From a virus, in the IMG/VR virus record IMGVR_UViG_3300034033_000029: a stretch of 5,100 nt of DNA; one strand, 5' to 3'. The notes under the pieces were generated by a model. The model made no database searches. It saw only the letters and a program-made list of their open reading frames with translations, and was not told the origin of the DNA. Numbering within the stretch: the first letter of the stretch is position 1; every line of letters starts with the position of its first letter. Both the position numbers and the translations under genes were made by a program. This document shows, one piece after another, positions 3,219 to 5,100 of this stretch.

Positions 3219-4587
3219 TTTCGTTTGCTCCTATTTTAATAGATTTTACTCGTAGTTTTTCACGAGGGAAGATTGTGCCGATGAAAGTATTAGCGATTAG
3301 GGCCTTTGTATCAGAGTACCCGATTTGCTCGGGGAGGAGTTGACTTACCCAATCGTAGAATTGAGATGAATCCATCCTGTCTGGTCTCGCTCCACTTCGA
3401 ACGCTCGATAGCATCTTCGTGAAGGTGCTGGAGTTGCTTGTGATTAGTTCGCTCAAAGTGAGTTGCTTCTGCCTGAATTTCATCAAGTAGAGTTGACGTT
3501 TCGCCACGGAGCGCAGTAATCCGAGAGGCACCATATGGATCCTCATTAGAAAAAGGTTCGTAGTGCTGCTCGGCGCTCTCCAGGTCAGTGCTTCGACGGT
3601 CATTTGATCGAGTTGACTCAGAGCTGCTCGGAGGGTGTTTATCCCGAGATTCCTGGTTGCTTTCATTCGGTGATGCCATTCTTTGTGCTCCTTAGATAGA
3701 TATTTAGTGATGTAGAATCCCGATGTCCTCGGGGTGCTTACTTTCATTGGCCGCCCTGATTTATCGAGTGGGAGACAGAATTGGTGATTGGTTTGATAGA
3801 TATCGGCAACGTGTCTAAAGTAGAGAGCTGGCGATAAATGCGGTAAAGACCATCCCCATAAGGTACGCATTGGTAAACATTCATTGTGTTTGCGGTTGGC
3901 TGGATTTCTGATCCCTTTGTTTGGGCAAGTTCTCCAACTAGGAGGAATTGCCCTGAGCCAGATAATAAAATGGCCGTGATGATGCTCACGACTTTTGCCA
4001 TGCTCGATAACTCCTGCGTACGTAACATACTGAGATTCGCTCCGATAGGGCGGTTTATGGGCTGGTGGTTCGCCGAGTTCCTTACAAACTATATTGACGA
4101 GCCGCCTGATGTATTTTCTGAATGCGCGGCCATCTTGCCATAGTTTTTTGGGGTCTGTCAATTGGGGGTCAACTGTGAGTGTAACGAAGAACGGATACCA
4201 TTCATCCTGGCGTTTTTCTTCTGCTTCCTGTCCGATTCGCCAAGCCCAATTTGATTTTCTGACTACGTCAGCCTTGTGGGACATATTTTTGAGGAAGATT
4301 TTTTCATCCTCGTTATGATTTAGAACGTCAGTCCGGAGACCGAGTTCTTGTTTTTTGTCTTTTAAAGACATTCCAGGTTCGATACCGACCTGGGTTAGTG
4401 TTTGGGGGTAAGTAAGAATTCCAGAATCAAGAATGTCGTGGAGTTCTTCGGTGATGGTATTGATTGTAATTTCATCGACTTTGTCAGAGCGATGTGAAAG
4501 TAAAAGATTGGTGCGCATTTGCGCCCAATATTGTTGAGATTTATTGGAGAATTTTTGTTGTATTTGATCGAGATATGATTTAGACAT
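3205..4587 (-). CDS. A: Rolling-circle replication initiator (gene A type, HUH endonuclease), 460 aa
   Basis: Motif I is FFVTLTV (4171-4191). Motif II is HHHGHFIIW (3958-3984). Motif III, with paired Tyr, is YITKYLSK (3691-3714), compared with remembered phiX174 gpA YVAKYVNK. ATG at 4587..4585, TAA at 3207..3205. Confidence 0.95.
   Translation of the reverse strand: MSKSYLDQIQQKFSNKSQQYWAQMRTNLLLSHRSDKVDEITINTITEELHDILDSGILTYPQTLTQVGIEPGMSLKDKKQELGLRTDVLNHNEDEKIFLKNMSHKADVVRKSNWAWRIGQEAEEKRQDEWYPFFVTLTVDPQLTDPKKLWQDGRAFRKYIRRLVNIVCKELGEPPAHKPPYRSESQYVTYAGVIEHGKSREHHHGHFIIWLRAIPPSWRTCPNKGIRNPANRKHNECLPMRTLWGWSLPHLSPALYFRHVADIYQTNHQFCLPLDKSGRPMKVSTPRTSGFYITKYLSKEHKEWHHRMKATRNLGINTLRAALSQLDQMTVEALTWRAPSSTTNLFLMRIHMVPLGLLRSVAKRQLYLMKFRQKQLTLSELITSNSSTFTKMLSSVRSGARPDRMDSSQFYDWVSQLLPEQIGYSDTKALIANTFIGTIFPREKLRVKSIKIGANEIGHP
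3311..3679 (-). CDS. Overprinted 122-aa hydrophilic ORF inside the 3' half of Rep; candidate internal scaffolding protein (gene B analogue)
   Basis: ATG 3679..3677 is preceded by a perfect AAGGAG (3693..3688) with an 8-nt spacer. The protein is acidic, Ser/Glu/Arg-rich and lacks hydrophobic stretches. Its size and nesting (ending 106 nt before the Rep stop) resemble phiX174 B (120 aa) nested inside A. No sequence similarity to B is recognised. Confidence 0.6.
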   Translation of the reverse strand: MASPNESNQESRDKHPPSSSESTRSNDRRSTDLESAEQHYEPFSNEDPYGASRITALRGETSTLLDEIQAEATHFERTNHKQLQHLHEDAIERSKWSETRQDGFISILRLGKSTPPRANRVL

Positions 4588-4608
4588 ATTTGTATTTAGG
4601 GATTAGTA

Positions 4609-4624
4609 GCGCGCTTATGCGCGT
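4609..4624. other. GC-rich hairpin gcgcgc-ttat-gcgcgt flanked by direct GATTAG repeats (4601-4606, 4629-4634)
   Basis: CGCGC/GCGCG 5-bp stem plus a G:T closing pair and a 4-nt loop, 22 nt upstream of the Rep ATG in virion sense. It is the only GC-rich block in an AT-rich region. Confidence 0.45.
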
Positions 4625-4710
4625 GAGAGATTAGAGTTTTGAAGTATAGCTGTTTGGACAATGAAAGATTATTGATAGAAGCTATAGGAGAGAGTGTTGG
4701 TATAGGTTAT

Positions 4711-4739
4711 TTGTATATGATATGTCGGATTTTTATAAA
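4711..4739 (+). promoter_or_regulatory. Sigma70-like promoter for the + strand ORF: TTGTAT (4711-4716), 17 nt, TATAAA (4734-4739)
   Basis: Hexamer match and 17-nt spacing read directly from the sequence. The -10 element lies in the loop of a 5-bp inverted repeat, GTCGG (4723-4727) / CCGAC (4742-4746). Confidence 0.4.
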
Positions 4740-4796
4740 TAGCCGACGATTATTTGATAGTGAGTTTTTGAGTTGAGAGTAAAGTGAATACTCACT

Positions 4797-4804
4797 AAGA
4801 GGAG
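4797..4804 (+). promoter_or_regulatory. Shine-Dalgarno AAGAGGAG, 7 nt upstream of ATG 4812
   Basis: Read directly from the sequence. It is the strongest SD in the whole genome. Confidence 0.6.
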
Positions 4805-4811
4805 AGATTTA

Positions 4812-4988
4812 ATGAATGATTGTGTTGAGATTATTTTGCATGATAGTGAAGTTGAACGCCAGTATGGCGGGATTTATACGCTACAGATTCCTTTGAGCGT
4901 AATAATGGTAGCCCTGATTGGACAGGGCTTTTGTGGATATGATAAGGAGAAGAATTGTTCTCAGATTATTTTAGATTTAGAGAGTTAG
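4812..4988 (+). CDS. 58-aa ORF on the strand opposite to all other genes; hypothetical small membrane-type protein
   Basis: ATG 4812 to TAG 4986-4988, hand-translated as MNDCVEIILHDSEVERQYGGIYTLQIPLSVIMVALIGQGFCGYDKEKNCSQIILDLES. It has a strong SD, an upstream promoter-like element and a downstream intrinsic terminator. The central hydrophobic stretch is LQIPLSVIMVALIGQGFCG. It was not in the supplied ORF track, whose shortest listed ORF is 60 aa. Confidence 0.55.
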   Translation: MNDCVEIILHDSEVERQYGGIYTLQIPLSVIMVALIGQGFCGYDKEKNCSQIILDLES

Positions 4989-5100
4989 TTAGGCCGAGAT
5001 TGATTATAACGGCCAATAGTTTTAGACCTGGGCTTTTGACCCAGGTTTTTTTTGTTTTGTTTAAAGGGATTAAGTTGAAATTGTTTGCTAGTGCCAAATG
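4985..5100 (-). CDS. H: 3' end of the same H-like CDS, seen intact in the redundant right-hand copy (stop TAA 4985-4987)
   Basis: Same frame as 1-836 after removing the 94-nt redundancy. The C-terminal peptide is ...FKQNKKNLGQKPRSKTIGRYNQSRPN, then stop. Confidence 0.75.
   Translation of the reverse strand, partial: FGTSKQFQLNPFKQNKKNLGQKPRSKTIGRYNQSRPN
5007..5100. repeat. Second copy of the wrap-around redundancy (same as 1-94)
   Basis: Identical to 1-94. This is a linear representation of a circle, not a biological repeat. Confidence 0.97.
5026..5053 (+). terminator. Rho-independent terminator on the + strand (also present as 20-47 in the redundant copy)
   Basis: The 7-bp stem acctggg/cccaggt has a 7-nt loop and is followed by eight T. 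It lies 38 nt downstream of the ORF58 stop. On the - strand the hairpin is preceded by A8 and not followed by a T-run, so it is unidirectional. Confidence 0.7.

Follow-up and report, generated by a model that had tools for sequence, protein, structure and literature searches.

The IMG/VR virus record IMGVR_UViG_3300034033_000029 is a DNA of 5,100 nucleotides (nt), referred to here as the window, which consists of a 5006-nt circle followed by a 94-nt overlap in which the first 94 bases reappear, so that positions 5024-5053 and 18-47 are the same DNA. Every large open reading frame (ORF) lies on the - strand, in the gene order of phiX174, and between two of them, the genes for the H-like protein and for the replication initiator Rep, a 58-codon ORF, named ORF58, runs the opposite way on the + strand (Table 1). 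Rep transcription is divergent from ORF58, while H converges on it and the stop codons of the two interlock. The interval from 4588 to 4984 (397 nt), which forms the H-Rep slot, contains no - strand ORF of at least 30 amino acids (aa), save a 43-aa ORF at 4966-5097 that intrudes by its last 19 nt, and the G+C content of the H-Rep stretch is about 0.34-0.38 (0.36 for the slot) versus 0.46 for the genome. A first-pass annotation of the same DNA had reported the position and length of ORF58, the interlocked stops, some 400 nt without sizeable virion-sense coding and a G+C content of 35% counted by hand. All four statements stood on recomputation, and the interlocked stops were borne out by circular reconstruction of the ORFs.

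ORF58 is preceded by a strong Shine-Dalgarno sequence (SD) at the distance given in the annotation, comparable to the SDs of the phage's own B-like (TAAGGAG) and D (TAGGAG) genes. In dinucleotide shuffles, the chance of an ATG-initiated ORF of 58 codons or more arising on the + strand of this 401-nt stretch was P = 0.013, which decreased to P = 0.0024 when an SD was also demanded. The sole homolog of ORF58 is P0002, located on the IMG/VR contig L001, as established by searching 5.8 billion protein clusters and by a full HMMER pass over 1.84 billion representatives. No match to ORF58 was obtained in Pfam, even at E values up to 10, nor among PHROGs or PDB sequences. No further copies of the ORF58 module emerged when metagenomes were scanned twice, with peptide patterns and with a 22-mer; two viral-contig scans returned L001 only, and an H-based search found no relative sharing the H 3' end. 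The next relative, L002, with an F protein 73% identical, is without ORF58. The annotation had raised the question of whether the SD and the terminator travel with ORF58, and in L001 they do: the AGGAG core of the SD is kept at equivalent spacing as GATAGGAG, and the terminator is also present.

The two versions of ORF58 have the same length, start and stop, display no indel, and share 84% amino-acid identity, in genomes whose F proteins are 81% identical. They are separated by 17 substitutions and 10 amino-acid changes, and these changes, which include D/N, V/I, I/V, D/E, V/L, I/V and S/G, are conservative. Scored with BLOSUM62, they sum to +9 in the ORF58 frame versus a mean of -3.8 in simulations (P = 0.016), and the five other frames give sums from -11 to -21; hence, only in the ORF58 frame are the replacements conservative.

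The terminator starts 38 nt after the ORF58 stop in the + direction. The 7-bp hairpin followed by eight T residues that the annotation had described is indeed present, and its fold has a computed energy of -14.9 kcal/mol (z -3.7), close to that of its counterpart in L001 (-14.0 kcal/mol, z -4.7). A strict terminator was defined by 7 Watson-Crick pairs, at least 4 of them G-C, and at least 7 T in 8; one such element occurs in the genome when both strands are scanned, and one was found on either strand in 5 of 1000 whole-genome shuffles. With its G+C-rich stem-loop and U-tract, the segment 5024-5053 is a canonical predicted intrinsic terminator for + strand transcription. It lies within the final 23 codons of H, 38-68 nt past the H stop, and because of this location the annotation's picture of a self-contained cassette had to be abandoned, as the unit overlaps H. 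In L001, one G-C pair of the stem is replaced by U-A, a compensatory exchange in which both changes are synonymous for H (CTG to CTT, CCC to CCA), and which offers a neat example of dual coding. The hairpin lying between the ORF58 stop and the terminator (4993-5015) folds together with the terminator hairpin at -24.4 kcal/mol (z -4.0).

Since the ORF, its SD and the sole strict terminator are all kept in L001, the locus is best read as a putative opposite-strand expression unit convergent on H, and the sequence evidence supports this reading. As for ORF58 itself, it is probably a real, lineage-specific antisense accessory gene that shares its DNA with signals acting at the nucleotide level, and this view is held with moderate confidence.

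Table 1. Positions of the features discussed for the window and, where indicated, for related contigs
Feature	Position	Strand	Details
ORF58, 58 aa, MNDCVEIILHDSEVERQYGGIYTLQIPLSVIMVALIGQGFCGYDKEKNCSQIILDLES	4812..4988, ATG to TAG 4986-4988	+	ORF list; JGI gene call P0001
Shine-Dalgarno sequence AAGAGGAG	4797..4804	+	7-nt spacer to the ORF58 ATG
Predicted intrinsic terminator	5024..5053 (=18-47)	+	7 Watson-Crick pairs (9 with outer A-U/G-U), 5 G-C, then T8
Hairpin GCCCTG-ATTGGA-CAGGGC inside ORF58	4911..4928	+	-12.6 kcal/mol, z -2.7
Hairpin GGCCG...CGGCC, after the ORF58 stop, in the last H codons	4993..5015	+	100% identical in L001
Divergent non-coding region, 224 nt, from the Rep ATG (4587, -) to the ORF58 ATG	4588..4811		Hairpins 4609-4626 and 4724-4748
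Weak promoter-like site TTGTAT-17-TATAAA	4711..4739	+	8/12 match, -10 without final T
Replication initiator Rep (gene A-like), 460 aa	4587-3205	-	PF23343, E 1.1e-5, just below cut-off (weak)
B-like ORF, 122 aa, nested in Rep	3679-3311	-	Strong SD TAAGGAG
External scaffolding protein D		-	PF02925, 27.0 bits vs cut-off 25, E 4.8e-6; SD TAGGAG
F major capsid protein		-	PF02305, E 1.7e-23, 83.6 bits vs cut-off 25
G-like ORF, 183 aa		-	
H-like gene, 285 aa	836 to 1, over the circle junction, 5006 down to 4985; TAA 4985-4987	-	Circular ORF reconstruction
phrog_12600 protein, 185 aa	L007 657-1214	-	
phrog_12600 protein, 175 aa	L020 1060-1587	-	

The same slot was then compared among 25 related contigs, 20 of which have a contiguous H-to-Rep interval and were counted. 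At least one antisense ORF of at least 50 aa, with ATG and SD, occupies the slot in 15 of these 20 genomes, and such ORFs occur at 1.94 per kb in the slot versus 0.18 per kb elsewhere on the antisense strand. Several of them form families across genomes whose F proteins are 55-70% identical to that of the window. One family, found in L007 and L020, matches phrog_12600 (function unknown) over its full length (E 1.6e-30) and carries the signature 'VIAHPPCRGYSAF ... GGVLEHP'; its proportion of synonymous differences (pS) is 0.83 versus 0.285 for nonsynonymous ones (pN), which indicates that the family is under purifying selection. The gene calls of L020 split this stretch into two small out-of-frame ORFs, and for the pair tested pS is about equal to pN. 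In L022, an antisense gene (about 5832-6404 plus 1-297, - strand) encodes a PP-loop protein of about 240 aa that matches nearly the whole PAPS_reduct domain, with a score of 22.3 bits that is just under the 22.5-bit cut-off. The slots of L013 and L019 encode small proteins that weakly match a repressor PHROG and a MazE-like family. L026 and L018 each have one small acidic antisense ORF that adjoins Rep back to back, the layout also seen in the window. In L007, L013 and L021, hairpins resembling terminators and oriented for antisense transcription are located at or within the 3' end of H, and independent gene callers put - strand genes in the slots of L020, L021, L022 and L026. The slots of L023 and L024 contain sense-strand genes instead, and those of L002 and L025 have little content.

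Judged from these sequences, the H-Rep slot is an accessory island of variable content in which antisense cargo is the usual case, with ORF58 as one lineage-specific occupant. By the same comparison, antisense genes are a regular feature of this microvirus clade, a result that is broader and better supported than ORF58 itself. The annotation had considered an antisense unit to be unusual for a microvirus. It does break the one-strand rule stated for these phages, but it is not a one-off, given the 15 relatives of 20 with a comparable arrangement.

Other observations were made on the slots of these relatives. The PAPS-reductase-like gene of L022, whose genome measures 6257 nt, sits beside two more small antisense genes and represents an unusual enzyme cargo for a microvirus. 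Right after H, L020 (634-786, + strand) and L021 (in the slot, + strand) have sense ORFs of about 50 aa with lipoprotein signal peptides and lipoboxes (…LAGC…, …SIGC…), which are related to each other (E 4.8e-5) and could possibly be exclusion or lysis lipoproteins. L018 has a very basic 46-aa sense ORF after H (4443-4583, + strand), MSYKKRKTQSRKTNPKRG…KRKRSKKR, with the look of a J-type DNA-packaging protein. Finally, L008 (7074 nt) contains D, F and G twice and is a concatemer of a genome of about 4.9 kb, not a larger genome.

The protein encoded by ORF58 is acidic (9 D/E vs 3 K/R, net -6) and has three conserved cysteines. The annotation had seen in it a hydrophobic core of about 19 residues between acidic ends, with three cysteines; both flanks are acidic and the cysteines are there, but the core turned out to be only borderline. 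The hydrophobic run, GGIYTLQIPLSVIMVALIG, has a Kyte-Doolittle 19-residue mean of 1.71-1.82, just above the classical threshold of 1.6, and on the Hessa scale the 19-residue sum is unfavourable, at +3.4 to +4.1 kcal/mol, compared with -3.4 for phiX174 E and with -2.7 for the lipoprotein signal peptide of a relative. Moreover, the stretch contains Q, P, S and G, L001 has a glutamate in it (G37E), and the absence of a basic flank leaves no positive-inside signal. The AlphaFold2 model depicts a soluble beta-beta-alpha-beta-beta domain, at low confidence (predicted local distance difference test, pLDDT, 57), and a Foldseek search of this model against the PDB returned nothing below E 0.3, only generic beta-grasp look-alikes. 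An AbrB/MazE/SpoVT swapped-hairpin fold, guessed by eye, was rejected, as hhalign gave it a probability of 0.2% and E 0.27.

These properties bear on the function that the annotation had favoured, namely a single-pass membrane peptide for lysis or superinfection exclusion. Single-gene lysis proteins are orphans as a rule, as is ORF58, and family searches recognised no phiX E-like gene elsewhere in the genome, so that besides the Kyte-Doolittle value there are grounds to consider the idea. Yet a lysis protein of the phiX174 E type has a strongly hydrophobic N-terminal transmembrane helix and a basic tail, and is overprinted in D on the sense strand, while ORF58, with its Hessa sum of up to +4.1 and net charge of -6, is antisense and not overprinted. 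Because of the weak hydrophobicity, the net charge, the missing basic flank, the glutamate in L001 and the low-confidence soluble model, a lysis peptide was rejected as the leading idea, and a membrane-spanning function of either kind is regarded as improbable. The product is more likely soluble or oligomeric, and by analogy with other accessory genes a role in host interaction or regulation is favoured. The sense strand offers a better hydrophobic candidate, a 94-aa ORF (4028-3744, - strand) that is overprinted in another frame of Rep and whose segment AKVVSIITAILLSGSGQFLLVG reaches a Kyte-Doolittle value of 2.03 and a Hessa sum of +1.7. This ORF, which might encode a membrane or lysis protein of the K or E type, is also open from an ATG in L001 (257-538, 93 aa), although such conservation is expected anyway because Rep itself is conserved there.

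Upstream of ORF58, the divergent region shared with Rep presumably holds promoters for both directions. Between the window and L001 it is 83-88% identical, versus 59-75% for the coding genes, and this upstream non-coding part has indels. A search for sigma-70 promoters on both strands of the region gave best matches of 8-9 of 12 positions, none convincingly conserved, with a consensus that may not be that of the host. The promoter proposed in the annotation, TTGTAT-17-TATAAA, did not survive this scrutiny: in addition to its incomplete match, L001 has TAATAA in place of the TATAAA -10 element, and the site was missed by the consensus promoter scan, which returned 6 sites versus 8.7 in shuffles and hence no enrichment. 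In the same region, a 45-aa ORF on the + strand (4639-4776) was rejected as a gene, since it lacks a conserved start, the frame of the L001 ATG is displaced by an indel, and its ratio of nonsynonymous to synonymous substitution rates (dN/dS) is about 9.

The divergent region is for the most part included in a block of about 460 nt (4598-5055) that begins just upstream of the Rep start codon, reaches some 70 nt into H and is the best-conserved part of the genome, with 83-100% identity to L001 versus 59-75% for the genes. The last 23 codons of H have dN 0 and dS 0.54. Six hairpins in the block keep their stems and vary in their loops between the two genomes; in the one inside ORF58 the stems are identical, and both substitutions lie in the loop, where they give rise to G37E. 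The block could reflect either a recent recombination or an additional role of the DNA or RNA, such as promoters, a complementary-strand origin or RNA structure.

A number of findings weigh against ORF58 as a protein-coding gene. Its dS of 0.22 is about tenfold lower than the values for D, F, G and H (2.0-2.9), and the non-coding DNA around it is conserved to a similar degree, so that a large part of the conservation does not reflect the protein. The persistence of an open frame through 17 substitutions is unremarkable (P = 0.33), and ten amino-acid changes are not a low number. The annotation had proposed a dN/dS below 1 as a sign of conservation; the value is indeed 0.36, but it does not single out the frame, as control frames range from 0.32 to 0.53, and the ratio was therefore discarded as evidence for coding. 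Confidently paired positions, on either strand, carry fewer substitutions than expected (P about 0.02-0.05), and G37E, a non-conservative change, is located precisely in the loop of a hairpin. To these points must be added that no credible promoter was found, that the protein model has a pLDDT of 57 and no structural match, and that ORF58 is present in two genomes only, with no other homolog in all the clusters and representatives searched.

Most of these findings would be accounted for if the slot were a non-coding control region, containing Rep promoters, the complementary-strand origin and single-stranded DNA (ssDNA) structures, in which ORF58 is fortuitous and the hairpin with its T8 tract is a structural element of the H 3' end. 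Such a region would explain why the block is so well conserved and so low in dS, why paired positions resist substitution, why dN/dS is blind to the ORF58 frame, and why the protein is an orphan whose fold is predicted at low confidence. Furthermore, apart from the slot, the virion strand has no sizeable stretch free of sense coding, and the origin and promoter signals must therefore lie about there. This hypothesis, the chief rival, is nevertheless considered doubtful, as it leaves unexplained the strong SD, correctly spaced and kept in L001, the absence of indels or stops in the L001 version of ORF58, the conservative changes that are specific to one frame, and the position of the U-tract of the sole canonical terminator on the antisense side; in addition, relatives encode antisense proteins in the same slot. 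The coding gene and the control region are compatible readings, not mutually exclusive ones. Confidence in ORF58 as a gene stops at a moderate level because of the nucleotide-level constraint on the block.

Another explanation is that the + strand transcript acts mainly as an RNA, through a cis-antisense effect on the H mRNA 3' end or on Rep read-through, or through convergent transcription that dampens read-through, the ORF being incidental or secondary. The predicted terminator puts the 3' end of the transcript about 70 nt inside H, so the overlap follows from the geometry alone, and the RNA would be structured and conserved. The genome scan found no strict terminator in the sense direction after H, and sense read-through across the slot is hence expected. 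However, a regulatory RNA needs neither an SD nor a conserved 58-codon frame with conservative replacements, and no match to Rfam 15 was obtained at the gathering score, the only hit being L20_leader with 22.7 bits versus 58.7 (E 0.38). Moreover, the antisense units of the relatives encode real proteins of unrelated sequence, which makes protein cargo the common denominator of the slot. A purely or mainly RNA-based function is, for these reasons, thought to be unlikely.

A protein-coding accessory gene remains the preferred interpretation, and among the candidate roles listed in the annotation, that of a moron was judged the best fit. Morons and accessory-gene islands are described for lambdoid and HK97-like double-stranded (ds) DNA phages. 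Like them, ORF58 is an extra small gene between core genes, with a terminator of its own and a low G+C content (0.36 vs 0.46), and its presence among collinear relatives is patchy, being restricted to the window and L001, with unrelated cargo in its place elsewhere. Unlike them, it belongs to a 5-kb ssDNA microvirus and faces backward, so that it could be expressed only from the double-stranded replicative form; moreover, its terminator lies within the coding sequence of the neighbouring gene and no promoter was identified. A 17-nt direct repeat (4589-4605 and 5056-5072, 14/17 identical) was dropped as a sign of insertion, because a rough calculation predicts about one such pair by chance and because the repeat is absent at the H side of L001.

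According to the proposed mechanism, ORF58 would be expressed from the double-stranded replicative form, on its complementary strand, with + strand transcription starting within the 224-nt region common to ORF58 and Rep, which lie back to back. The resulting mRNA would carry the strong SD and the 58-codon ORF, and would end at the predicted intrinsic terminator in the last 23 codons of the convergent gene H. Since this terminator is inside H, the 3' ends of the H and ORF58 mRNAs would overlap over about 70 nt. The same DNA would also carry signals acting at the nucleotide level, comprising the conserved hairpins and probably promoters and/or the complementary-strand origin. By analogy with morons and accessory islands, the likely job of the product would be to counter host defence, to control superinfection or to control early expression, with lysis being unlikely.

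Microviruses are the textbook example of a compact genome read from one strand. Kirchberger et al. (2022; PMC9239249) stated that all microvirus genes face one direction, and removed the calls in reverse orientation from their dataset. Previously, Roux et al. (2012; PMC3394797) had described one complementary-strand ORF in a microvirus, Human_gut_33_003, which they called "highly unusual", being aware of no second instance. That ORF resembles ORF58 in its orientation and in being of unknown function, but it is a single 153-codon ORF by the peptidase gene of a gokushovirus-type genome, for which no SD, terminator or conservation analysis was reported, while ORF58 lies in the H-Rep slot of a phiX-like clade with a D scaffold, where antisense genes recur, and the two have no sequence relation. 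No description of a recurrent antisense slot in microviruses was found in the literature searched, although an earlier mention in the pequenovirus paper (Bryson 2015) is possible. The window itself has the F-type capsid and the D scaffold expected of its group, and ORF58 and the relatives depart from the rule of one gene direction (PMC9239249).

Other known systems offer partial parallels. The window shares with phiX174, G4 and alpha3 (Bullavirinae) the gene set and order (Rep with a B-like ORF, D, F, G-like, H-like) and a circular genome of about 5 kb. In contrast, its H-A gap measures 397 nt and contains an antisense unit, while that of Bullavirinae is short and a single strand is transcribed; in addition, its F protein is only about 24% identical to those of G4 and phiX, and no J or E homologs were recognised. 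The layout also resembles that of the ambisense circular Rep-encoding ssDNA (CRESS-DNA) viruses, such as circoviruses and geminiviruses (PMC5075696): there too, Rep and a second gene point away from a shared, hairpin-bearing intergenic region on a small ssDNA circle and are expressed from the double-stranded form. The likeness is limited to layout, as those viruses are eukaryotic and unrelated, and their opposite gene encodes the capsid instead of a small variable accessory protein.

A broader hypothesis, advanced tentatively, is that the whole phiX-like clade with a D scaffold is ambisense, with an antisense module between H and Rep that would act as an early regulatory or anti-defence unit and whose cargo turns over. 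This cargo would include orphan acidic proteins such as ORF58, weakly RHH/MazE-like proteins, the phrog_12600 protein and the PAPS-reductase-like enzyme. The module would diverge from the Rep promoter region, in a manner comparable to the accessory and immunity regions of larger phages, and curated microvirus datasets from which reverse-oriented genes are deleted would have erased it. Ribosome-binding sites precede antisense ORFs in most of the genomes compared, and this genome has a predicted terminator. If a sister lineage of phiX174 does routinely use the antisense strand, the gene repertoires of microviruses are under-counted, and both convergent and divergent transcription take place on a replicative form of 5 kb, which bears on the control of Rep and on conflicts between transcription and replication. 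The H-Rep slot would then be a defined place to seek new small host-interaction proteins.

Regarding the lineage, a nucleotide search of 50,697 GenBank phage records gave no match to the window, and the nearest deposited phages by protein are the G4 and phiX types, with about 24% identity of F over 95% of its length (tblastn). A protein search found 357 related F proteins at E up to 1e-10, and the 120 listed are 58-100% identical and come mostly from metagenomic contigs of about 2-6.5 kb. The window is thus assigned, on sequence grounds, to a large lineage of phiX-like phages that possess a D scaffold and are absent from deposited phage genomes. Its H-like protein is 71% identical to the L001 homolog. 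The 122-aa ORF nested in Rep had no match in family searches, but it is kept in L001 and L003 with dS 0.29 and dN 0.20, values typical of an overlapped gene, and is probably the equivalent of the internal scaffold (gene B). Family searches of the window genome recognised no J or E homologs; the N-terminus of F is basic, and the window has no J-type basic ORF, unlike L018. The origin motif of phiX174, CAACTTGATATTAATAAC, had no match in the window within 3 mismatches.

Two further peculiarities of the genome were recorded. The + strand displays a very strong skew of G over C (0.42-0.57) from 4401 to 5100, across the slot and the start of Rep, while the rest of the genome has values of about 0-0.25. 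Lastly, a 62-nt tandem duplication (2664-2787, 90% identical) spans the D/F junction; it is shared by L003, a fragment of the same virus, but not by L001, where D abuts F, and it gives rise to a 21-codon ORF, MSRSSRFPKDVAETIKQANKK, in which an F-like start is fused to a copy of the D C-terminus.

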